A DNA stretch of 64,000 bases from an uncultured Solibacteraceae bacterium. Lineage in GTDB: Bacteria; Acidobacteriota; Vicinamibacteria; Vicinamibacterales; SCN-69-37. A program made the translations under genes and the position numbers. The stretch lies in NCBI GenBank assembly GCA_964423815.1, contig CAYRGW010000004.1, forward strand, positions 370 through 64,369, in the 5' to 3' direction. This document shows, piece after piece, positions 6,010 through 22,038 of the stretch. The notes beneath the pieces are model-generated. The model was not told where the DNA came from, searched no databases, and saw only the letters and a list, made by a program, of their open reading frames with translations. Positions within the stretch are counted from its first letter, which is position 1, and each line of letters starts with the position of its first letter.

Positions 6010-6420
6010 ATGGAGCAACAAATGCCACACAGCATCGGAGACGCCATCATCGTCGCGGCACTGGTCGCGGGGTTCGTTGGCTACCTCTACATCAAATACC
6101 TGGAAAAGCGTCGCCGCCTCGAGACGATCCACGCCGAACGGGTCATGGCGATGGAGAAGGGCATTCCGTTGCCGGAGCTGCCGCTGGAACCGTCAGCCCG
6201 CCCTGACACGGGCGCGGAATCGCGGCAAGTCACGCTCATCATCGGTCTCGTGCTGGCAATGTTCGGGATCGGCTCGATGATCACGTTGTCGCTGATCGAT
6301 GAGTTCCGTCGGGCGTGGCCGGCGCCACTGCCGGTGGCGTTCATCGGCATCGGTCTGGTGCTCTACTACGTGATGACCGCCGCACCGGATCACTCGTCGC
6401 CCACCCGCCGTGGACACTGA
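6010..6420 (+). CDS. DUF6249-like membrane protein preceding the ECF sigma
   Basis: TM, then RRRLETIHAERVMAMEKGIPLP, then 2 TM. Confidence 0.7.
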   Translation: MEQQMPHSIGDAIIVAALVAGFVGYLYIKYLEKRRRLETIHAERVMAMEKGIPLPELPLEPSARPDTGAESRQVTLIIGLVLAMFGIGSMITLSLIDEFRRAWPAPLPVAFIGIGLVLYYVMTAAPDHSSPTRRGH

Positions 6421-6973
6421 CGGCGTCCTGGTCGCCCGCTGCGTTGAGCACGGTGACGACCGCGCGTTTGCCGAATTGGTCCGGCGGCACCGTGACCCCA
6501 CATTTCGTCTGGCGCTTTCCATTCTCGGACGGGAGTTTCAGGGCGAGGCCGAAGAGGTGACGCAGGAGGTTTTTCTTCGCGCGCACCACGCCCTGTCCAC
6601 GTTTCGCGGCGAGGCAAAGTTCAGCTCGTGGATCTATCGCATCACGTTCAACCAGGCAGTGAACCTGAAGGAACGGGTCCGCTACCGCGCCCCACATCTG
6701 TCCGCCGACGTCCTGTCCGGCCTGGTGTCTTCGGAACCAGATCCACACGACCAGCTGGCGACGACGCGGAAACATCGCGCGCTGGCCGAGTGTATGGCGG
6801 AGCTGCCCGAGGTGTATCAATCCGCCCTGCGGCTGCACTACTGGCTCGGCGCGGGTCTTGGGGAAGTCGCGGAGTTGCTGCTGGTGCCGGAGAACACCGT
6901 GAAGTCGTATCTCCATCGGGCACGTCGCCTGCTGCACGTCATGCTGCAGGAGCGAGGATTCACAAATGTCTGA
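6410..6973 (+). CDS. ECF RNA polymerase sigma factor
   Basis: Region 2 AEEVTQEVFL..FSSWIYRITFN; region 4 EVAELL.VPENTVKSYLHRAR. Confidence 0.93.
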   Translation: MDTDGVLVARCVEHGDDRAFAELVRRHRDPTFRLALSILGREFQGEAEEVTQEVFLRAHHALSTFRGEAKFSSWIYRITFNQAVNLKERVRYRAPHLSADVLSGLVSSEPDPHDQLATTRKHRALAECMAELPEVYQSALRLHYWLGAGLGEVAELLLVPENTVKSYLHRARRLLHVMLQERGFTNV

Positions 6974-7265
6974 ACAGGATCACATGGATCAACTGCTCTC
7001 CCAGGCGATGTCCGCCCCGGCGCCGACGTTGTCCTCCGACTTCGACCAGCGGCTCACCCGGCGGATGCCCGCGCGGCTCGACCGGCGACGTCGCCTGATC
7101 CTGATCGCCTATGTCGTCGTGGCGCTGGTGGTTTCGGTCTGGTCGATGCTCGCGGTGGGACTGGGGTGGTCGATGGTCGCGGGGTTCGTCTTTGTGCCGC
7201 TTGGGGTGGTGGCGGTGGTGTTCCGGCGACACCTCCGAAACTGCGTTGCCATCGGCTCCTTATGA
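6966..7265 (+). CDS. Putative small membrane anti-sigma factor
   Basis: Overlaps the sigma stop; short soluble N-terminus + 2 TM. Confidence 0.6.
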   Translation: MSEQDHMDQLLSQAMSAPAPTLSSDFDQRLTRRMPARLDRRRRLILIAYVVVALVVSVWSMLAVGLGWSMVAGFVFVPLGVVAVVFRRHLRNCVAIGSL

Positions 7266-7339: not shown

Positions 7340-8011
7340 ATGGCCCACGAACGAATGGATCGACGGACGTTATTGCACGGTGTCGGCGCGGCCACGGCCG
7401 GCCTGGTCGTTGGCTCGGTGAATCTGTCGGCGCAGGCGGCGCCCGCCGCACCTGCGGCGACCACCTTCCAGCCGATGCGGCACCCCCAGGACGCGTGGCT
7501 TGACGGCGTGCCGGGCAAACATCGGGTTGTGCTTGATGCAGTGTCGCCCGATGGCGCGGCCCAGGGCATCGGGTACTCCAACAACGTTTACAACGCGAAC
7601 CGCTCGGGGTACGCACTCGAAAACGCCGACATCGCGCTGGTCCTCGTGCTTCGGCATCACGCCACTGCCTTCGCCTTCAACAATGCGATGTGGAAAAAGT
7701 ACGGCAAGGTGTTCGCGGAGTTGACCAGCTACAAACATCCGACCGACCCGGGCCCGCCCACTTCAAACCCGCGCAACTCGGGTGAACGTCCGCCGCTTGA
7801 TCGTCTGGTCGCGCGCGGCGCGCACATCATCGTGTGTGGTCTGGCGACCAACCTCTACGCCGGGCAGATTGCCGGCGAGGGTGGCGATCGCACTGCCGTC
7901 TATAAGGAGCTGGAATCCAACATGGTGGCCAATGCACACATCATGTCGGCGGGTGTGGTCGGGATCACGCGCGCGCAGGAATACGGCTACAGCATGATTT
8001 ACGTCGGTTGA
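7340..8011 (+). CDS. Tat-exported DsrE-like protein
   Basis: DRRTLL Tat motif; VLVLRHH; single Cys in IIVCGLA; C-terminal AGVVGITRAQEYGY resembles DsrE/F folds. Confidence 0.6.
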   Translation: MAHERMDRRTLLHGVGAATAGLVVGSVNLSAQAAPAAPAATTFQPMRHPQDAWLDGVPGKHRVVLDAVSPDGAAQGIGYSNNVYNANRSGYALENADIALVLVLRHHATAFAFNNAMWKKYGKVFAELTSYKHPTDPGPPTSNPRNSGERPPLDRLVARGAHIIVCGLATNLYAGQIAGEGGDRTAVYKELESNMVANAHIMSAGVVGITRAQEYGYSMIYVG

Positions 8012-8021
8012 CGCGGTCGGC

Positions 8022-9353
8022 GTGCACGTCGATACCGGTCTTGTTCGTGCGCACGGCATCGCAGCCCTTGTCACGCTGCTGGTGTCGGTCACGTTTGGGC
8101 TGATCATTTCCATCCAGCTGTGGTGGCCCGACCTCGGGGCCGGCGTGCCTGCGCTCAGTTGGGGACGCCTCCGCTACGCACATACCCAGGGCATCATGCT
8201 CGGCTGGCTCGCGAACGCGTTTTTCGCGTTTCTGTATCACGCCGTGCCCAGACTCACCGGCAGGTCCGTAACCAGTCCGGCACTTGGCCGATGGTTGTTC
8301 GGCATCTGGAATCTCGCGGTGATGGTGCCTGGTTGGGTGCTGGTGCTGGCCGGCGTCAGTCAACCGCTCGAATGGGCGGAGTTCCCCCTCGTCGTCGACG
8401 TCTTCGTCGCCATCGGCATCGTGATGGCCGTGATTCAGTTTGTGCCGCCGTTTTTTGCGCGCGGGTTGGAATCGCTGTACGTCTCGAGCTGGTACATCAT
8501 CGGCGCGCTGGTCTTCACGACGTTGGCCTATCCGATGGGCAACATCGTGCCGGAGTTTGTGCCCGGCGCCGCCGGCGCCGCATTCAGTGGATTGTGGATT
8601 CACGATGCGGTCGGGCTGTTTGTCACGCCGCTGGCATTGGCGATCCTCTATTTCGTGATCCCCGCCGTGACGGGGAAACCCATCTACAGCCACTTCCTGT
8701 CGATGCTCGGCTTCTGGCTGTTGTTTTTTCTGTATCCGCTCAACGGCACACACCACTACGTGTTGTCGGTGATTCCGATGTCCGCGCAATTTACCGCGAT
8801 CACCGCGTCGGCGCTCCTTGGTGTCACGGTCATCCTTGTTGTGGCCAACCTCCTGTTGTCCCTCCACGGTGCCGGCGCATTCCCAAAGGACCTCGGCCTC
8901 AAATTTGTGGTGATGTCGACGATTTTCTATCTGATTGTCAGCGTGCAGGGATCCCTGCAGGCGTTCATGGCCGTCAATCAGGTCGTGCACTTCACCGACT
9001 GGGTCATCGGGCATTCACATCTGGCAATGCTGGGTTTTGCGACGTTCGCGGCGGCGGGTGGACTGGTGCACGCGTGGCAACGCACACCGGGCGTCCGTTT
9101 TAATGAACGGGTGGTGCATCGCGCCTATTGGTGGCTGTTTGCCGGTGTCGTGCTGATGGTGATCGATCTGACCATCGCGGGGCTCGTGCAAGCACAACTC
9201 TGGCAGTCCGGCGCGCCGTGGATGGAGTCCGTGGTCGCCTCACGCCACGCGTGGATTATGCGATCGGCGACGGGTGTGCTGGTGCTCGGCGGGTTTCTCG
9301 ATTTGCTGCAGGGGCTGTTGACCGGACCGCGCAATCCCGAGGTGAACACATGA
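8022..9353 (+). CDS. ccoN: cbb3-type (C-family) heme-copper oxidase subunit I-like
   Basis: Six His ligands in [20 protein letters not shown] and WVIGHSH; helix VII Tyr in LYPLNGTHH; about 12 TM. Confidence 0.85.
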
Positions 9354-10522
9354 AGCCGCTGCGCATGGCGTACCTTGTGGCCCTTGTAGCCGGCGTTGGA
9401 TTTTTCATCACGTCGGTCGTCTGGCTTGGTGTCTGGCCGGCGCGTGTGCTTGAAGAACAGGCGCGGGCGTTTGGTCCCACCGCCGCGCGTGTGCAGACGC
9501 CCAGCGAACTCCGGGGCCGCGAGATCTATGCACGGGAAGGCTGCGGGTACTGCCACACACAGCAGGTGCGATTCACCGCTGCCGATGAAGCCCGGTTTGG
9601 CGCACCCACTCTTGCGTGGGAGAGTCGCCGCGACGTGCCGCACATGCTCGGCACGCGGCGCATCGGCCCGGATCTGTCACGCGCGTCCGGCACCCGGCCG
9701 GAAGACTGGCATCTTGTCCATCTCTACAACCCCAGGCTTGTGGTGTCGCAGTCGGTCATGCCCGGTTATCCCTGGTTGTTTGACGATGGCCCGGACAGGC
9801 CGAAGCAGGCAGCCCTTGACGTGGTGGCGTACCTGCAGTCGCTCGGGCGCCCGCGGCTCCTGGCGGCGGTGGGCACAGACGATGTGATTGTTGTGAATCC
9901 TGCTTCGCGACGCCGAACCGGACCGTTGCCGACGCTGCCTGAGTCGACCGGTGCGCGCGGTCCGGAGCTGTACATGCAGCACTGCGCCTCGTGCCACGGA
10001 CCGGAGATGAAGGGTGATGGCCCAGGGACACGCGGGCTGCTGCCGTCGCCGACGTCGTTGGCCGATCGTTGGTATCGGTCCGAGCGGGTGCTTGAGGCGC
10101 TGTGGCACGGTGTGCCGGGCACCGCGATGCCCGCATGGCGGGACCTGCCGCTTGCCGATCTCGCGGCACTGGTGACACACGTGCGGCAGTCGACCGCCGA
10201 GGCGCGGCCCGATCAGCCCAGCGACACGCCCGCGCCTGATGCCACTGAGCGTGGCGCCCGCGTGTTTGCCGGCAACTGCGCCCAGTGCCATGGGCCCTCC
10301 GGCGCCGGTGACGGTCCGTCCGCCGGTTCACTCCAACGGCCTCCGACCAATTTCCGCCTGCAGCAAATGTCGTTTGCCGGGGTGGTGACCACCCTTGAGG
10401 AGGGGATTCCCGGCAGCATGATGGCCCCCTGGGGATCACGATTGAGCCGGGAGGACATGGCGGCGGTCGCTCATCACGTTCGAGGATTGTTCAGCGAAGA
10501 TGTTGTGAGGCCGAACCGATGA
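9350..10522 (+). CDS. ccoO: CcoO domain fused to two further cytochrome c domains (3 hemes)
   Basis: ATGA overlap; N-terminal TM; REGCGYCHTQQVR, GTRRIGPDL and SVMPGYPWLF are CcoO motifs; further CASCH and CAQCH. Confidence 0.88.
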   Translation: MKPLRMAYLVALVAGVGFFITSVVWLGVWPARVLEEQARAFGPTAARVQTPSELRGREIYAREGCGYCHTQQVRFTAADEARFGAPTLAWESRRDVPHMLGTRRIGPDLSRASGTRPEDWHLVHLYNPRLVVSQSVMPGYPWLFDDGPDRPKQAALDVVAYLQSLGRPRLLAAVGTDDVIVVNPASRRRTGPLPTLPESTGARGPELYMQHCASCHGPEMKGDGPGTRGLLPSPTSLADRWYRSERVLEALWHGVPGTAMPAWRDLPLADLAALVTHVRQSTAEARPDQPSDTPAPDATERGARVFAGNCAQCHGPSGAGDGPSAGSLQRPPTNFRLQQMSFAGVVTTLEEGIPGSMMAPWGSRLSREDMAAVAHHVRGLFSEDVVRPNR

Positions 10523-10674
10523 TGCCCGACCTTCTCGTGTACGCGGTCCTTGTCCTCACCGCCGGCTTTGTCCTCGCCTGGGCGCTGAGTCCCAGGCTCC
10601 GGGCGCGGATCGAGGCGCCGAAGTATCTGTTCGTCGAGGACATTCAACGTTACGATCGGACACACCATGACTGA
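10519..10674 (+). CDS. 51-aa single-TM protein, CcoQ-like small subunit (not in the ORF track)
   Basis: MMPDLLVYAVLVLTAGFVLAWALSPRLRARIEAPKYLF...; overlaps both neighbours; TM followed by E-x-PKY as in CcoQ-type subunits. Confidence 0.7.
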   Translation: MMPDLLVYAVLVLTAGFVLAWALSPRLRARIEAPKYLFVEDIQRYDRTHHD

Positions 10675-11629
10675 CCCGGCCACCACTCGTTCGTCGTCAG
10701 GCTGGACCGTCGCGTTGGCTGTCACCGGCGTGCTCGGCATGGTGGCGCTGGCTGCCACGTTGTTTGTGGTGGCTGACCGGGCCACCGTTGACGGCGAAGT
10801 GCAGGCCGAAGCCACGCCTGAATATGGCCGCCAGCTGATTGCGCAGACCGCGATGTTGATCGGCCCGAATCATCCCGATCCCGAGATGCGATACACGGGC
10901 AGCGGCCTCAATTGTGGGTCATGCCATCTGCAGACCGGCGAATTACCCGGGCAGTTGTCGCTCACGGAAACCTATCAGCGGTATCCACGGTTCTCAGGCC
11001 GGGATGGCCGAGAGGCCGACCTGAAGGATCGCATCGACGGGTGTATGGAGCGCAGCATGAACGGCCGCGTGCTTCCGCGTGATGGTGTCGAGATGAACGC
11101 GATGGTGGCGTACATCAAGATGCTCAGCGACGAATATGCCGCGATGAATCCGCTGGCGAAAGCGATCAACGAACCGGCACCCTTCCGCACGCCAAACCGC
11201 GCGGCCTCCCCCGAGGCCGGCAAGCTGGTCTACGACGACAAATGCGCCGTGTGCCACGGGCGCGACGGATCGGGTCTGCCCGCGTCGTCGGATCCCCGAC
11301 GGGGCTACGTGTTTCCACCGCTCTGGGGCGACGACTCGTTTAATAACGGCGCGGGCATGGGGCGCGTGATCACGGCATCACGGTTCATCAAGGCCAAGAT
11401 GCCGTTCGGCAAACCTGACCTCACAGACGATGAAGCGTTCGACGTCGCCGCCTTTATCAACTCGCAGCCGCGGCCGATGCTGAGTCCGGAGAAACTTGCG
11501 AGCGACTACCCGGACAGGGCGACCAAACCCATCGACTCCCCATATCCGCCGTACGCGGATCCCTTCACCGTCGATCAGCACCGCTTTGGTCCGTTCCAGC
11601 CGATCGAAGCGTTCTACAAAAAGAAGTAG
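10667..11629 (+). CDS. tsdA: Membrane-anchored TsdA-like diheme cytochrome c (thiosulfate dehydrogenase family)
   Basis: CGSCH, distal Cys in IDGCMERSMNG, CAVCH, PPLWGDDSFNNGAGM, FIKAKMP. Confidence 0.75.
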   Translation: MTDPATTRSSSGWTVALAVTGVLGMVALAATLFVVADRATVDGEVQAEATPEYGRQLIAQTAMLIGPNHPDPEMRYTGSGLNCGSCHLQTGELPGQLSLTETYQRYPRFSGRDGREADLKDRIDGCMERSMNGRVLPRDGVEMNAMVAYIKMLSDEYAAMNPLAKAINEPAPFRTPNRAASPEAGKLVYDDKCAVCHGRDGSGLPASSDPRRGYVFPPLWGDDSFNNGAGMGRVITASRFIKAKMPFGKPDLTDDEAFDVAAFINSQPRPMLSPEKLASDYPDRATKPIDSPYPPYADPFTVDQHRFGPFQPIEAFYKKK

Positions 11630-11635
11630 GTTGCC

Positions 11636-12448
11636 ATGTTCTCGCGACTTCTGGCCATCGGCGCTCTTGCGTTGTCCCTGTTGCCTGCCCAGGCGCAGAC
11701 GTGGACCCCACTTTTTAACGGCCACGATCTGACCGGCTGGACACCGAAGTTCGCCAAACACGAGCTGGGCGTCAACCTGCACGACACCTTTCGTGTGGAA
11801 GACGGTGTGTTGAAGGTGGCCTACGACAAGTGGACAAGTTTTGACGGCGAGTTTGGTCACCTGTTCTACGCGCAACCCTACTCGCACTATCGCATCGCCG
11901 CCGAATATCGATTTGTCGGCGAACAATTGCCGGCCGCCGCGCGGGGTGTCGGGTGGGCGGTCCGCAACAACGGTTTCATGCTGCATGCGCAGGACCCCAA
12001 AACGATGGTTCGTGATCAGGATTTTCCGATCTCGATCGAAGTGCAGTTCCTCGGGGGGTTAGGTACGGGTGTGCGACCGACCGCGAACCTCTGCACGCCG
12101 GGCACCCATGTGGTGCTTGGTGGGCAGCTCAGGACCGCGCACTGCACCAACTCCAACGCCAGGACGTATCACGGCGACCAGTGGGTGCGTGTCGAGGTGC
12201 TGGTGCTGGGCGACGACTTGATTCGTCACTACGTCGAGGGCGAGGTGGTGATGGAGTACACCAAGCCGCAGATCGGTGGCGGAAATGTGTCACCGACCGA
12301 TCCAGCCATCAAAATTGACGGCACACCGCTGACGGGCGGATTTATCGCGATCCAGTCGGAAACCGCACCAACGGAGTTCCGGAAGATCGAGATTCAGAAC
12401 CTCGAGCACTGCAAGGCGGACATCACGGCCTGCACCGGCCGTTGGTGA
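11636..12448 (+). CDS. DUF1080 (3-keto-disaccharide hydrolase-like) secreted protein
   Basis: Signal peptide; LFNGHDLTGW; SIEVQ; GGFIAIQSE; EFRKIEI. Confidence 0.9.
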   Translation: MFSRLLAIGALALSLLPAQAQTWTPLFNGHDLTGWTPKFAKHELGVNLHDTFRVEDGVLKVAYDKWTSFDGEFGHLFYAQPYSHYRIAAEYRFVGEQLPAAARGVGWAVRNNGFMLHAQDPKTMVRDQDFPISIEVQFLGGLGTGVRPTANLCTPGTHVVLGGQLRTAHCTNSNARTYHGDQWVRVEVLVLGDDLIRHYVEGEVVMEYTKPQIGGGNVSPTDPAIKIDGTPLTGGFIAIQSETAPTEFRKIEIQNLEHCKADITACTGRW

Positions 12449-12493: not shown

Positions 12494-14296
12494 ATGGACA
12501 ACACCCCCCTTCGAGTCCGGCCCGGCGTCGCCCTGGTGATCCTGCAGTGGCTGTTGACCTACGTCCTGCCCGCCGTCGCTCCCAACGCTGAAGTGGCTGA
12601 GGTGCCCCTCAGTCTCATCGGGATGGTGGGTGGCCTCATCTGCGGTGTGGGCATTGTCATCTGGTGGCTCGCCTTCAGCCGCGCGCGGTGGTTCGAGCGA
12701 ATCGGTGCGCTGGCGCTGATCGTCGTCGCACTGCTCGTGACCAGAATCCTGGTCGATCCTTCGATTGAAAACGCGGGCATGGGTTTTCTGCTGTTTATTG
12801 GCGCAGTGCCCGGCTGGAGCCTGGCGCTCGTGGTGGGCGCGGCGGTCGCCACGAAACTTTCCGGCGCTGGTCGCATGGTCGCGTTGACCGTCGCGATAGT
12901 CCTGTCGTGTGTGCCGTGGATGCTGTTGCGGACCGGCGGCGTGGACTCAACCGGGTCCGAGTACCACTGGCGATGGACGCCCACACCCGAAGAGATCCTG
13001 CTCGCGCGTGGCGACGATGTGCCTCCCGTCGTCGCTGCACCGCCCGTGGTCTCTCCTGATCCGGTTGCACCCGAGGTGGTCGCCCCCGCCCTGAGCGAGG
13101 CCGTCCCCGGCCGAGTCGAAGGGCGAGTCGAAGGGCCAGTCGAAAGGGTCGAATGGCCCGGCTTCCGCGGCCCGCTTCGTGACGGTGTGGTGCGAGGCGT
13201 CCGCATCAACACTGACTGGACGACCTCGCCGCCGGTCGAGTTGTGGCGTCGCCCCATCGGTCCCGGCTGGTCATCGTTTTCAGTCCAGGGCGATCTGATC
13301 TACACGCAGGAGCAACGCGGCGACGATGAGCTCGTGTCGTGTTACCGGCTGTCAACGGGGGAGCCCGTGTGGGGACATCGCGATGCCGTGCGCTTCTGGG
13401 AGTCCAACGGCGGTGCCGGTCCACGCGCGACGCCCACCATCCACGAGGGGCGCATCTACGCGTTTGGCGCGACGGGCATTCTCAACGCCCTTGATGCCCG
13501 AACGGGTGCGCGCTTGTGGTCCCGTCAGGTGGCGACCGACACCAAGCGGGAGCTGCCCATCTGGGGTTTTGCGAGTTCACCGCTGGTCATCGGCGACCTG
13601 GTCATTGTGGCGACGGCGGGAACACTGGCGGCGTACGAGCGCGTGACCGGCGATCACCGATGGACCGGCCCCTCCTATGGCGGCAGCTACAGTTCGCCCC
13701 ACCGCGTGACGTTTGACGGCGTGGAGCAGGTCGTGTTGCTGGGTGGTCCTGGCGCGATCAGTGTGGCACCCGCAGACGGCACCGTTCTGTGGACGCATGT
13801 GTGGGAGCCCGGTCCGATCGTGCAACCGGCCTTGACGGCCGACGGAGACATTCTCATCAATGCCATCGCGACCACCGGCGGAATTGGTGTGCGACGGCTG
13901 GCGGTCACCCGCCCAGGCGGGGTGTGGACACTTGAAGAGCGCTGGACGTCGATCGGGCTCAAGCCGTATTTCAACGATCTCGTGGTGCACAAGGGCCACG
14001 CGTACGGGTTTGACGGCAGCATCCTGTCCGCCATCGATCTGACGGACGGCACACGCAAGTGGAAGGGTGGCCGGTACGGCAACGGCCAGCTCATCCTGCT
14101 GGCGGAGCAGGACCTGCTGCTGGCGATCTCGGAAGAGGGCGTACTCGCGCTGGTCTCCGCCACGCCGGACAAGTTCACCGAACTCGCGACCTTTCCCGCA
14201 CTCGACGGCAAGACGTGGAATCACCCGGTCGTTGTCGGCGATACTCTGCTCGTGCGAAACGGCGTCGAGATGGTGGCCTTCCGCCTTCCGCGCTGA
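12494..14296 (+). CDS. Membrane-anchored PQQ-binding-like beta-propeller protein
   Basis: N-terminal TMs; EWPGFRGP; ELWRRPIGPGWSS; repeated G..LW propeller motifs. Confidence 0.85.
   Translation: MDNTPLRVRPGVALVILQWLLTYVLPAVAPNAEVAEVPLSLIGMVGGLICGVGIVIWWLAFSRARWFERIGALALIVVALLVTRILVDPSIENAGMGFLLFIGAVPGWSLALVVGAAVATKLSGAGRMVALTVAIVLSCVPWMLLRTGGVDSTGSEYHWRWTPTPEEILLARGDDVPPVVAAPPVVSPDPVAPEVVAPALSEAVPGRVEGRVEGPVERVEWPGFRGPLRDGVVRGVRINTDWTTSPPVELWRRPIGPGWSSFSVQGDLIYTQEQRGDDELVSCYRLSTGEPVWGHRDAVRFWESNGGAGPRATPTIHEGRIYAFGATGILNALDARTGARLWSRQVATDTKRELPIWGFASSPLVIGDLVIVATAGTLAAYERVTGDHRWTGPSYGGSYSSPHRVTFDGVEQVVLLGGPGAISVAPADGTVLWTHVWEPGPIVQPALTADGDILINAIATTGGIGVRRLAVTRPGGVWTLEERWTSIGLKPYFNDLVVHKGHAYGFDGSILSAIDLTDGTRKWKGGRYGNGQLILLAEQDLLLAISEEGVLALVSATPDKFTELATFPALDGKTWNHPVVVGDTLLVRNGVEMVAFRLPR
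13089..13148 (+). repeat. REP-like palindrome plus tandem GTCGAAGGG units inside the coding frame
   Basis: CCCTGAGCGAG-GCCG-TCCC-CGGC-CGAGTCGAAGGG, then CGAGTCGAAGGG and CAGTCGAAAGGG. Confidence 0.65.
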
Positions 14297-19046: not shown

Positions 19047-20253
19047 ACGAACGTTTCTTGGTCAGACCCTCAGCGCGTTTGGTGGCGTGGCGCTGCTGCC
19101 CACGGCGGCAGACCTGCTTCCTTTTCTCACCCAGACGGCCGTCGTCAAAGTCGGCATTGTGGGTACCGGTCGTCACGGCCGGGCGATCATCACGGAGCTT
19201 CAGAAGATTCCGCAGGTCGAGATCGCCGCGGTGTGTGATCGATCCGAGGCACGCTTGGCGCTCGCCACGCAGCGCGCGCAGTCGGCCGCCACATTCACCG
19301 ACCACACGGTGATGCTTGCGCAACGGCCGGACGTGACCGCAATTGTGGTGGCCACGCCGACACACCTGCATCGGGCGATTGTGGAGGATGTGATCGCGGC
19401 GGGGCGTCATGTGTATTGTGAGGGGCCGATCGCGTCCACGGTCGAGGATTGTCGCGCGATGGCGGCCGCCGCGGCGTCGGCCAAGACGATCTGTCAGGCG
19501 GGATTTCAGGGTCGGTCCAATCCGACCTACAAACGGGCGCAGCCACTCGTCCGCACAGAACTCCGCGATCTTGTCTCGATGTCCGCGCAGTGGCACCGGA
19601 AGACGTCGTGGCGTTTTCCCTCCGGCGGTGGTGACACGGATGCACAGGCCAACTGGCGGCTGGACCCGGCAGTGTCGCTGGGATTGGCCGGCGAGGTCGG
19701 AGCGCAGCAGTTTGATGTGGCCCACTGGTGGCGCGGGTCGTATCCGGCTCGGGTCATCGGACGGGGCGGTGTTCGGCACCATAAGGATGGTCGCAGCGTC
19801 CCGGACACGATCGACCTCGACCTGATTTGGGCGGACGGTGTGACCCTGCGGTACAGCGCGACCCTGGCCAACTCCTCCGGCGCGCAATTTGAGGTGGTGA
19901 ACGGTGTCAATGGATCGATCCGGTTGAACTGGACCCACGGATGGTTGTTCAAGGAAGCCGACGCGCCGACCCAGGGCTGGGAGGTCTACGCCACACGTCA
20001 GCAGATTTTCAACGAGGAGGGCATTGTGCTGATCGCCAATGCCACGCAGTTGGCCGAGCAGGGCAACCTGCAAGCCGGTGCGGGCCTGCCACATCCGTCG
20101 TTGTACTACTCGCTGATGGACTTCCTCAAGAGTGTGACGGAAGGGGCACCGGTCGCCTGTTCATTGGCTGAAGGCGCGCGCGCGTCGATCGTCGGGATTC
20201 TGGCCAATCAGGCGATCGTGACGGGCCAGGAAGTCGTCGTCGCGCTGGACTGA
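19039..20253 (+). CDS. Tat-exported Gfo/Idh/MocA-like protein with EGP in place of EKP
   Basis: MDRRTFL; VGTGRHG; TPTHLH; YCEGP. Confidence 0.85.
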   Translation: MDRRTFLGQTLSAFGGVALLPTAADLLPFLTQTAVVKVGIVGTGRHGRAIITELQKIPQVEIAAVCDRSEARLALATQRAQSAATFTDHTVMLAQRPDVTAIVVATPTHLHRAIVEDVIAAGRHVYCEGPIASTVEDCRAMAAAAASAKTICQAGFQGRSNPTYKRAQPLVRTELRDLVSMSAQWHRKTSWRFPSGGGDTDAQANWRLDPAVSLGLAGEVGAQQFDVAHWWRGSYPARVIGRGGVRHHKDGRSVPDTIDLDLIWADGVTLRYSATLANSSGAQFEVVNGVNGSIRLNWTHGWLFKEADAPTQGWEVYATRQQIFNEEGIVLIANATQLAEQGNLQAGAGLPHPSLYYSLMDFLKSVTEGAPVACSLAEGARASIVGILANQAIVTGQEVVVALD

Positions 20254-20277
20254 CGCGCGCGCTGACCGGCTCCGAGG

Positions 20278-20964
20278 TCAGAAAGCGCCGGCGTACCACG
20301 CGAGAAATGATCGCCACGTTTCCGATGAAACAACGGGTCCCATCGTGATTTGGACGGCGACAAAAAACACCAGCGACAACGGATACGCAAGCTGCCGCTG
20401 ACCGGAGCGGTAGTCGCCGATGATGAGCGCGAGCAGAATCAGTTCCACGGTCAGAAAACTTCCGTGCAGCGCCTGCATGAAGTCCACATGTGGCGCGAGA
20501 ACGCGCGCGTACAGGCGAGTCAGCGCAGGTGGAAATGCCAGCAGCACCGTGGCGACCATGAACCGTTTGTGCGCGGCGGGGCGACGCACGTTCAGGAGCG
20601 CCAGCGTCACCAGGACGATCAAAAACGCGATCGAAGGAAGGTCGATAAAGGCCAGGAGCGGCGGCAGAAACGGCGGCATGGCCGTGTTGTGGTGCATCAC
20701 CTGTACCATGTACAGCGCGCTGCCGATCATGACGGGCAGGAGCGCCAGCGCGACCCAGGCGACACGCCGATGCCAGACGCGAAGCCCACGCGCCATCAGC
20801 CACGACTGCACAATGAGCGCGACCACCCATCCTGTGGCGGACACGCCGTGGACGGTGTGCCACGTCGTGCCACCAGTAAGCGGCTGAAAAAATGACGGCC
20901 AGAATCCGGCAACAATGGCTGCCAGGGCGACGAGCAAGTACCAGTGTGCAAAACGGTACGACAT
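20278..20964 (-). CDS. Hypothetical multi-pass membrane protein
   Basis: About 7 TM; His-containing motifs HGVS, WHRRV, HKRFM. Confidence 0.75.
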   Translation of the reverse strand: MSYRFAHWYLLVALAAIVAGFWPSFFQPLTGGTTWHTVHGVSATGWVVALIVQSWLMARGLRVWHRRVAWVALALLPVMIGSALYMVQVMHHNTAMPPFLPPLLAFIDLPSIAFLIVLVTLALLNVRRPAAHKRFMVATVLLAFPPALTRLYARVLAPHVDFMQALHGSFLTVELILLALIIGDYRSGQRQLAYPLSLVFFVAVQITMGPVVSSETWRSFLAWYAGAF

Positions 20965-21015
20965 GAACGCTCCGTGGCTGGGGTGGCCGATTCTACATCA
21001 GCACTACGATAGGAC

Positions 21016-22038
21016 ATGCGTGGGTTGTCCCCCATCGTTCTTGCAAGCGTGCTGCTGTCGGCCTGCGCCAGCGCGCCGACGGTCGAGTCATTTCCGCCGC
21101 TGACGCCCTCGGAACGTTCCTGTGTCGACCATGCCGATGGGGTGACCTGGGTGCGCACCGCGCCGCCCGCCCATCAGACGACGCTTGATGCGTGGTGTGC
21201 GTCCGTCGGGCCCCCGTGGCGTCACACGGGTGTGCCGGTCGCCCCGCCTCCCGAAACCCTCATCGTCATCAGCTGGAACATGAACGTGGGCCGTGGCAGT
21301 CTTGACGACCTGCTTGCCCACCTCAGAGCTGAGTTCAAGGAGGAGTTGCTGCAGGAACGAGCGGGCCTGGTGCTGCTCCTGCAGGAGGTGCATCGCGAGA
21401 GCGCCACCGTGCCCGCGTTGCCACGCTTCCCGCGCGCAGTGCCGAGGCAGATACGTCCGCCTGTGTCCGCACCAGACATTGAGCAACTCGCGCAGGCAGT
21501 GGGCATGTCTGCCGTCTATGTACCGTCAATGCGAAACGGTAGCGGCGCTGTTGATCCGCAGGACCGCGGCAATGCGATCCTCACCACCGAGACGCTCGGT
21601 GCGCCGACCGCCATCGAGTTGCCGTTTGGACGCCAGCGTCGTGTCGCCGTCGGTGCGACCATCCACGACATCCGGTTCATCTCGGTGCATCTGGATACGA
21701 GCCGCGCCCGCGTGTTGCAGGCGGAAGCGCTCGCCGCGGCCGACCTCCCGATCGTGTCGGGCACCGTGGTGGCCGGCGATCTGAATTCTGTTGAGGGGCG
21801 CAACGACGGCAGTCACAAAACCCTGGCCAGCCGCTTTCCCTCACAGCCCTGTGGCGACACGCGCACCCATGCGTGGCCGTGGCGACTTGAAATGTTCTTC
21901 GGGGGCTGGGTTGGCAGACTCGATCACATCTTCACGAGCCTGCCGGCGGGTCGGTGGTCAACCAGTTGTTCGACCGTTCCGCACTTCTTCGGATCCGATC
22001 ACCGGCCGCTGGTGCTGGTGCTGCGGGTGGTCCGTTAG
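21016..22038 (+). CDS. Endonuclease/exonuclease/phosphatase family lipoprotein
   Basis: Lipobox LSAC; SWN, LQE, RGNAI, HL, GDLN, RLDHIF and SDHRP motifs. Confidence 0.9.
   Translation: MRGLSPIVLASVLLSACASAPTVESFPPLTPSERSCVDHADGVTWVRTAPPAHQTTLDAWCASVGPPWRHTGVPVAPPPETLIVISWNMNVGRGSLDDLLAHLRAEFKEELLQERAGLVLLLQEVHRESATVPALPRFPRAVPRQIRPPVSAPDIEQLAQAVGMSAVYVPSMRNGSGAVDPQDRGNAILTTETLGAPTAIELPFGRQRRVAVGATIHDIRFISVHLDTSRARVLQAEALAAADLPIVSGTVVAGDLNSVEGRNDGSHKTLASRFPSQPCGDTRTHAWPWRLEMFFGGWVGRLDHIFTSLPAGRWSTSCSTVPHFFGSDHRPLVLVLRVVR

Follow-up and report, generated by a model that had tools for sequence, protein, structure and literature searches.

The window analysed here comprises 64,000 nucleotides of contig CAYRGW010000004.1 (positions 370 to 64,369, forward strand) from the assembly GCA_964423815.1 of an uncultured Solibacteraceae bacterium of the phylum Acidobacteriota. 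Between positions 7340 and 11629 of the window, the open reading frame listing contains five co-directional plus-strand genes in the order A-B-C-D-E, in which a homologue of the thiosulfate-oxidising cytochrome TsdA is combined with a divergent cbb3-type oxidase and an exported DsrE-fold protein, and which may form a dedicated route from thiosulfate to oxygen. The five genes are as follows.

Gene A: 7340-8011, plus strand, 223-residue protein with a twin-arginine translocation (Tat) signal and a predicted DsrE-type fold.
Gene B: 8022-9353, plus strand, 443-residue C-family haem-copper oxidase subunit I, GTG start.
Gene C: 9350-10522, plus strand, 390-residue trihaem CcoO-CcoP-like fusion, ATG at 9350.
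Gene D: 10519-10674, plus strand, 51-residue single-span membrane peptide.
Gene E: 10667-11629, plus strand, 320-residue membrane-anchored TsdA-type dihaem protein.

A gap of 10 nucleotides separates A from B, and the following genes overlap by 4 (B/C), 4 (C/D) and 8 (D/E) nucleotides, so that A to E are very probably translated from a single transcript. Since the same order was found in many independent assemblies, the arrangement is not a chance one. Scans for consensus promoters and terminators at the operon returned nothing exceeding background, and no further cbb3-related or assembly-type gene was seen beside the five in the window. The original prediction, made from the letters of the window, had described five tightly coupled genes encoding a Tat-exported DsrE-like protein with one Cys, a CcoN-like subunit, a trihaem CcoO fusion, a tiny transmembrane subunit and an anchored TsdA-like dihaem protein; the coordinates, strand and spacing were reproduced, and the five assignments were upheld by the analyses described below.

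The TsdA-Type Dihaem Cytochrome

Protein E was aligned over about 200 residues with the TsdA of Allochromatium vinosum (AvTsdA, PDB 4WQ7), with an E-value of 7.6e-39, and with the TsdA half of the Marichromatium purpuratum TsdBA (PDB 5LO9), with an E-value of 7.7e-30, the latter alignment including part of the C-terminal extension of E. The SoxA/TsdA domain PF21342 was matched with 41.8 bits (cut-off 27), the SoxA model matched as well, and a cytochrome c domain was located at residues 181-266. The haem motifs are CGSCH at residue 83 (10913-10927), which lies opposite CRHCH of AvTsdA in the printed alignment, and CAVCH at residue 193 (11243-11257). In the same alignment, RIDGCMERSMNGR of E stands opposite RIGDCFERSLNGR of AvTsdA, with RIDGCMERS facing RIGDCFERS, and Cys126 (codon 11042-11044) occupies the position of the haem-ligand Cys96. 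The pocket arginines, whose absence on alignment had been named beforehand as grounds for abandoning the TsdA assignment, are all aligned in E: R112, R122 and R129, together with S130, correspond to Arg82, Arg92, Arg99 and Ser100 (4WQ7 numbering). The Cys, the three Arg, the Ser and the haem-2 Met were invariant across 40 homologues from the fetched loci. Judged by alignment, E is a TsdA homologue that retains all the catalytic residues that can be tested in this way. A selenocysteine ligand, considered for TsdA homologues of another acidobacterial family because of an in-frame TGA, was discarded, as the TGA proved to be an ordinary stop codon.

FIKAKMP of E, with Lys244-Met245 encoded at 11396-11401, stands opposite FIKHKMP of AvTsdA (Lys208-Met209), and the original prediction had equated this pair with the ligand switch of the oxidation-biased Allochromatium enzyme. 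The pair is present in E, but among the 40 homologues the residue preceding the haem-2 Met was Lys in close relatives, Arg in most of the other oxidase-linked proteins, and Asn in Flavobacteriaceae and Thauera/Azoarcus. A Lys-to-Met ligand switch has been confirmed for AvTsdA, and the introduction of Lys into the Campylobacter TsdA did not convert its directionality (PMC5146829), so that the K-M pair fits an oxidative enzyme without proving one. E further carries an N-terminal hydrophobic anchor of 24 residues (13-36, encoded at 10703-10774) and is extended at its C-terminus by about 47 residues.

The Divergent cbb3-Type Oxidase

Protein B matched the Pfam COX1 family PF00115 with an E-value of 2e-59; in NCBIfam and in the PDB, it was most similar to the cbb3 subunit CcoN (6e-40 against chain 3MK7_A). 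The motifs that carry the putative metal ligands and the cross-linked Tyr were located as follows.

Haem b His in RYAHT: 8172-8186, plus strand, gene B.
CuB His in WIHDAV: 8595-8612, plus strand, gene B.
Cross-link Tyr and HH in LYPLNGTHH: 8730-8756, plus strand, gene B.
Haem b3/b His in GHSH: 9009-9020, plus strand, gene B.

B was aligned with 14 relatives, the canonical CcoN-O encoded elsewhere in the genome and the Pseudomonas stutzeri sequence, the numbering of which is used here. The six metal-ligand His residues (60, 207, 257, 258, 345 and 347; two for haem b, one for haem b3 and three for CuB) were kept in B and in the 14 members of its clade. The cross-link Tyr251 of helix 7, six residues ahead of the HH pair, was likewise kept clade-wide (LYPLNGTHH opposite VYIWAGPHH), and the Ca-site Glu122/125 and the channel residues Thr215, Tyr223, Ser240 and Tyr317 were conserved. 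Two substitutions, H243G and E323Q, were found in all 15 B-type sequences, whereas the canonical paralogue of the same genome has His and Glu at these positions. In the structure of the P. stutzeri enzyme, His243 belongs to the proton pathway and Glu323 shares a hydrogen bond with the His ligand of haem b3. B scored 155.8 bits on the ccoN equivalog TIGR00780, far below the cut-off of 583, and shared 28% identity (tblastn) with the canonical CcoN of its own genome; for these reasons, B is placed by its predicted active site among the C-family O2 reductases, yet in a distinct, divergent subclade rather than with canonical CcoN. The high affinity for oxygen suggested by the original prediction would be an extrapolation from the family to a divergent clade that is altered at these two positions.

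The genome was found to contain four haem-copper oxidase subunit I genes, namely B, the canonical CcoN-O fusion and two further COX1-family genes. The canonical cbb3 oxidase, with CcoN and CcoO in one frame of 774 residues, lies outside the window on another contig (C14, about 19700-21690; L008). As this CcoN-O retains His243 and Glu323, the operon oxidase appears to be a second, specialised C-family enzyme, while the canonical one would serve general respiration.

Gene C encodes an N-terminal membrane anchor, a CcoO domain at residues ~47-166 and a CcoP/c4-like dihaem module at residues ~194-380, with CxxCH motifs at residues 65 (9542-9556), 212 (9983-9997) and 310 (10277-10291). FixO (PF02433) was matched with 120.9 bits against a cut-off of 29.6 (7e-35), two cytochrome c domains were detected besides, and the PDB CcoO chains aligned with residues 47-166 at about 1e-28. 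The dihaem module matched ccoP TIGR00782 over profile positions 100-281 (3e-16) and the PDB CcoP chains over residues 194-380 (about 1e-8). The suggestion that the oxidase operates without CcoP must accordingly be withdrawn: a separate CcoP gene is absent from the operon, but the C-terminal half of C, joined to the CcoO domain, is a dihaem module homologous to CcoP. In five related loci, B and C are themselves fused as one open reading frame of about 850-950 residues (L015, L016, L020, L023 and L053). Homologues of the hydrophobic peptide D were recovered by tblastn from the interval between C and E at 15 related loci (37-88% identity); D occupies the position of CcoQ, yet no CcoQ similarity was detectable and no significant match was obtained in the protein-family libraries.

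The Exported Protein with a Predicted DsrE Fold

Protein A begins with a Tat signal of about 33 residues (7340-7438), with RR at residues 8-9 and AQA at residues 31-33. Its single Cys, C166 (codon 7835-7837), was invariant in 50 homologues, as were H48, D51, W53, H61, R62, D66, R105, H106, K120, E190, Q213 and E214. No match to Pfam or NCBIfam was obtained even at E-values up to 10, and a profile search of the PDB gave nothing meaningful. The AlphaFold2 model built with the 50 homologues had a predicted local distance difference test score of 88 overall and of 87-98 per ten-residue block from residue 41 onwards. When this model was submitted to Foldseek, the best matches were the DsrE-like proteins MTH1491 (1l1s), ST0148 (2pd2) and SSO1126 (2qs7), with E-values of 7e-5 to 6e-2, probabilities of 0.87-1.0 and target template modelling scores of 0.55-0.78. 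C166 terminates the strand 162-166 of the model, putatively the canonical position of the reactive Cys, and in an hhalign comparison it stood opposite the invariant Cys of a small secreted family that matches PF02635, the similarity being modest (E-value 2e-4, probability 47%). A is therefore predicted by modelling to adopt a DsrE-type three-layer alpha/beta fold. The nearest precedent for the chemistry of A is DsrE3A, which has been reported to form a Cys-S-thiosulfonate with tetrathionate (PMC4175335).

The A family comprises 1,414 clusters at 50% identity (E-values up to 1e-3). Of the best 150, 92 were represented at full length; an RR signal is present in nearly all of these 92 and the motif F-[AM]-V-C in most of them. 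Some members of the family bear the Joint Genome Institute label "DsrE/DsrF family". The family is nearly absent from the Gammaproteobacteria sampled: two samples of 400 genomes yielded a single Woeseiaceae genome. No relatives of A were found on plasmids, and Acidithiobacillus was not among the names of ten divergent A-family clusters.

In many related loci, two to four tandem A paralogues precede the oxidase, one copy being very divergent (profile E-values of ~1e-13 to 1e-20); examples are L004:7974-10175, L059:2449-3899 and the genomes G288, G268 and G134. The window has one copy. A separate and abundant soil subfamily of A, with proteins of about 227 residues, 43-47% identity and a 9-residue insertion, was seen in seven loci (L005, L079, L085, L086, L108, L111 and L121).

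Conservation of the Gene Order

Conservation of the linkage in other genomes, which the original prediction had proposed as a check, was evaluated in 401 genomes sampled evenly from the phylum, in a one-genome-per-species collection and in metagenome contigs, and was found to extend beyond the phylum. Relatives of B were present in 14 of the 401 genomes. Ten of these are B orthologues from other members of the order (69-75% identity); in every one of the ten, E follows at a distance of about 2.5 kb and A precedes B, often together with a second, divergent A paralogue, and 11 of the 12 close TsdA orthologues (at least 55% identity) adjoin B. Three distant relatives of B from other families (42-57% identity) are accompanied by neither E nor A, and their oxidase is paired with other c-type cytochromes. 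In the species collection, A-B-C-D-E or B-C-(D)-E was found in metagenome-assembled genomes labelled Vicinamibacterales, Bryobacterales/Solibacteraceae, Woeseiaceae and another gammaproteobacterium, as well as in one labelled Acidimicrobiia and one labelled Bordetella, for which binning errors are possible. In total, the same order was recovered at 14 genome loci beyond the ten of the phylum sample, and 18 of the 80 metagenome contigs fetched with the A profile have A followed by B and, as far as the contig extends, by the remaining operon genes. In a maximum-likelihood tree of the TsdA subfamily, all 16 oxidase-linked proteins formed one clade with 100/100 support that spans Acidobacteriota and Gammaproteobacteria; one locus consisting of A and E only is nested within it.

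The sulfur genes and the oxidase genes were also found apart. A lies directly upstream of E, with no oxidase, in two Vicinamibacterales genomes. Eighteen Flavobacteriaceae loci, including those of cultured Maribacter, Hyunsoonleella, Wocania and Robiginitalea, likewise have no oxidase; E is followed there by an A-like gene (27-32% identity) and then by a small Sec-type DsrE. The oxidase loci of Bryobacterales have no A, but a small DsrE gene lies within 3 kb. In Acidobacteriota, Gammaproteobacteria and Bacteroidota alike, TsdA genes of this subfamily are accompanied by A-type or small DsrE genes, whether or not the oxidase is present. Because the TsdA/DsrE pair and B-C-D each occur separately, the operon of the window is, as far as gene order can tell, the union of two separable modules, one consisting of TsdA and its DsrE-fold partner and the other being the B-C-D oxidase that lies between A and E.

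In the conserved trio of the Flavobacteriaceae (L026-L046, e.g., L028:7788-9939), TsdA is membrane-anchored, the A-like protein has a Tat signal, and the small DsrE is Sec-exported and matches PF02635. Cultured carriers of the trio include Maribacter polysiphoniae DSM 23514 and Hyunsoonleella aestuarii KCTC 23449.

The Host Genome

The assembly, which by estimate represents a complete genome, totals 4.66 Mb over 189 contigs and has its nearest relatives in the Vicinamibacterales. The sequence was located mainly in groundwater metagenome runs and also in lake-water and sediment runs. E is the sole SoxA/TsdA domain of the genome, in which no SoxX, no SoxCD and no RuBisCO large subunit were found. 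A search for Sox or DsrE proteins elsewhere in the genome returned no PF02635 match, and its only yield was a SoxB-like protein below the cut-off (336 bits against 550). This is a metallophosphoesterase of 481 residues, encoded outside the window at C11:63805-65250, which has no signal peptide on inspection of its N-terminus and does not lie in a sox cluster. A route that processes tetrathionate with TsdA and a SoxB-like protein has been reported for Erythrobacter flavus (PMC7608252). Given the sole TsdA domain, no SoxB above the cut-off and no RuBisCO, the gene content fits a heterotroph able to use thiosulfate as a supplementary electron donor. The lithoheterotrophic acidobacterium envisaged by the original prediction is consistent with this gene content and with the Vicinamibacterales relatives.

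Proposed Function and Alternatives

The operon is proposed to be a dedicated, self-contained thiosulfate-to-oxygen respiratory branch in a heterotroph, a reading to which a probability of about 60% is assigned on account of the intact catalytic residues, the complete O2-reducing site, the translational coupling and the strict, phylogenetically coherent co-inheritance. The anchored TsdA would oxidise two thiosulfate to tetrathionate at its His/Cys haem 1 on the outer face of the cytoplasmic membrane, and the two electrons would exit through haem 2 (His/Lys-Met), pass to the CcoP-like dihaem module of C and the CcoO haem c, and then reach, through haem b, the haem b3-CuB-Tyr site of B, where O2 would be reduced to water; D may be a small accessory membrane subunit. 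A would most likely act on the sulfur side, where it could take a thiosulfonate either from tetrathionate, as DsrE3A does, or from a Cys-thiosulfonate intermediate of TsdA; by analogy with SoxXA-SoxYZ, TsdA might also load thiosulfate straight onto A. The analysis establishes the gene content, the conserved residues, the predicted fold of A and the conserved linkage, whereas the direction of electron flow, the role of C as the direct acceptor of TsdA, any assembly into a complex, the pumping of protons and the reaction of A are inferred. In protein-film electrochemistry the tetrathionate/thiosulfate couple lies at about +0.2 V, which would leave a terminal oxidase as the only energy-yielding acceptor and makes a private oxidase sensible. 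A stronger version of the proposal, considered rather doubtful, would have the proteins form one "thiosulfate oxidase" complex, in which TsdA is a stoichiometric tethered subunit of a distinct cbb3 subfamily and A an obligatory Cys carrier or co-substrate, the whole being a minimal Sox-independent periplasmic system that is modular in Acidobacteriota, Woeseiaceae and Flavobacteriaceae.

Several observations weigh against a dedicated thiosulfate-to-oxygen branch. TsdA enzymes are bidirectional, and residue 208 alone does not set their bias (PMC5146829). The anchor and the C-terminal extension of E are shared by homologues with no oxidase nearby; the anchor is thus a trait of the subfamily and gives no evidence for the supercomplex suggested by the original prediction. 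B-C-D occurs with other cytochromes and no TsdA in three loci (L053-L055), and would therefore be a general module, not one intrinsically dedicated to thiosulfate. The energetics of B may differ from those of canonical cbb3 oxidases, since H243G and E323Q sit at the positions taken to belong to the proton pathway and to the tuning of haem b3. On metagenome contigs, the soil subfamily of A was always solitary, with neither TsdA nor oxidase within 6 kb. As to expression, the runs that contain the sequence are DNA metagenomes only.

Three other explanations were weighed against the dedicated branch. The sulfur chemistry could resemble that of the Sox carrier system, with TsdA coupling thiosulfate to Cys166 of A, in the manner of SoxXA and SoxY, and the electrons passing to the private oxidase, so that tetrathionate would not be the main product. 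TsdA and SoxA share the domain of the Cys-ligated haem (PF21342, with a match to the SoxA model), Cys166 is invariant together with a set of charged residues in its sequence neighbourhood, and in Acidobacteriota, Gammaproteobacteria and Bacteroidota the TsdA genes of this subfamily have beside them a gene for a single-Cys DsrE-fold protein, either A-type or small and Sec-exported. Such a carrier would need to be unloaded, however, and the genome has neither a SoxB above the cut-off nor another carrier-unloading enzyme; the characterised TsdAs work without a carrier, a large subfamily of A exists without TsdA, and no A-type gene was in reach at five Flavobacteriaceae, two Thauera/Azoarcus and one Vicinamibacterales loci, although one of the Flavobacteriaceae contigs stops just past TsdA. 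This explanation is regarded as unlikely.

The TsdA homologue might instead be a generic electron-entry cytochrome, or a tetrathionate reductase or detoxifier, and the operon an ordinary microaerobic oxidase. The loci L053-L055, in which unrelated c-type cytochromes replace TsdA beside the same oxidase clade, would agree with the former, and the ability of TsdA enzymes to run reductively (PMC5146829) with the latter. An invariant catalytic Cys, three Arg and a Ser would not be expected of a mere carrier, however, and TsdA forms a module of its own with the DsrE partner elsewhere, while tetrathionate reduction consumes electrons and would be senseless in an enzyme hard-wired to an oxidase; this second explanation is thus judged to be quite unlikely. 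Finally, A could be the main thiosulfate-oxidising catalyst and E its electron acceptor, if A were kin to AFE_0042, the haem-free Tat thiosulfate dehydrogenase of Acidithiobacillus ferrooxidans. AFE_0042 is a periplasmic, tetrathionate-forming protein of ~25 kDa with a Tat signal and no cofactor, which reduces neither cytochrome c nor ubiquinone (PMC6335251, PMC2754497), and in outline, as published, it resembles A in its Tat signal, size and lack of cofactor. The presence of a complete TsdA active site in E and the near-absence of the A family from the 400-genome gammaproteobacterial sample argue against such a role, which is held to be very improbable.

Neighbouring Genes

Genes on either side of the operon were conserved with the cluster in the closest relatives only. 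An extracytoplasmic function (ECF) sigma/anti-sigma pair lies upstream (6410-7265); it was considered as a regulator of the operon and rejected, being absent upstream of every related locus and therefore outside the conserved unit. A secreted DUF1080/3-keto-disaccharide hydrolase gene (11636-12448) begins 6 nucleotides past the TsdA stop codon. The same gene lies 3' of TsdA in two close relatives (L014 and L015) and not in the more distant loci examined, so that it is probably co-transcribed by an accident of position. The PQQ_2 beta-propeller encoded further downstream (12494-14296) was evaluated as a candidate tetrathionate hydrolase and dismissed, its PDB matches being confined to alcohol dehydrogenase and BamB propellers and its conservation to very close relatives.

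Significance

TsdA, cbb3 oxidases and DsrE proteins are known as such. Their union in one conserved operon appears to be new, as do the separate CcoN subclade, in which CcoO and CcoP are fused, and the repeated association of TsdA with exported proteins of the DsrE fold. Full-text literature searches, outside which most subscription journals lie, returned no account of a linkage between tsdA and either ccoN or a DsrE-like gene, so that absence of such an account is unproven.

Tetrathionate-forming thiosulfate oxidation is widespread in heterotrophs, and the route of the high-potential electrons to O2 and the conservation of energy are usually left to generic cytochromes. Should the proposed path be correct, the operon would spell out genetically how electrons travel from TsdA to oxygen and would allow this route to be tested as a whole, and sulfur-supported respiration would be added to the predicted physiology of the mostly uncultured Vicinamibacterales, Bryobacterales and Woeseiaceae. 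The analysis also delimits a cbb3 subclade altered at positions presumed to lie in or near the proton pathway, and draws attention to an exported, Pfam-less DsrE-fold family (~1,400 clusters at 50% identity) that repeatedly partners TsdA. The operon should be of interest to the fields of both sulfur oxidation and respiratory chains.

Comparison with Known Systems

The closest characterised counterpart of E is AvTsdA (4WQ7, 4V2K), with which it shares two c-type haem sites, the distal Cys of haem 1, the pocket of three Arg and a Ser, and the Lys-Met pair at haem 2. AvTsdA has a cleaved signal peptide, whereas E is predicted to be anchored at its N-terminus; in addition, E has the extension of ~47 residues at its C-terminus, and its gene lies inside an oxidase operon with no tsdB or high-potential iron-sulfur protein gene adjoining. 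The TsdBA of Marichromatium purpuratum (5LO9) resembles the operon in that TsdA is hard-wired to its electron acceptor; that acceptor is the fused dihaem cytochrome TsdB, whereas here, with no TsdB, the co-encoded oxidase subunit is presumed to take its place.

On the sulfur side, A shares with MTH1491, ST0148 and the DsrE3A of the DsrE3A/TusA system of Metallosphaera cuprina (PMC4175335) a DsrE-type fold, predicted in the case of A, and a single Cys, in A putatively the reactive one, that terminates strand 3. The thiosulfonate of DsrE3A comes from tetrathionate, the product of TsdA. In contrast to these proteins, A is about twice as long, is Tat-exported, has no Pfam DsrE match and carries an invariant N-terminal extension (H48, D51 and W53), whereas DsrE3A is cytoplasmic and a partner of an Hdr-like system. 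The SoxXA-SoxYZ system, like the operon, combines a SoxA-family enzyme with a Cys-ligated haem and a small periplasmic protein with a single reactive Cys; the SoxYZ fold is unrelated to that of the DsrE-like A, and the present genome is without SoxB, SoxX and SoxCD.

On the oxygen side, the operon shares with the canonical CcoNOQP of Pseudomonas stutzeri (3MK7/5DJQ) the ligands of haem b, haem b3 and CuB, the cross-link Tyr of helix 7, the Ca-site Glu, the monohaem CcoO and a CcoP-type dihaem entry module. It differs from it in the fusion of CcoP to CcoO, in the unrelated peptide of 51 residues in the place of CcoQ, in the clade-wide substitutions H243G and E323Q and in the inclusion of the TsdA and DsrE-fold genes.

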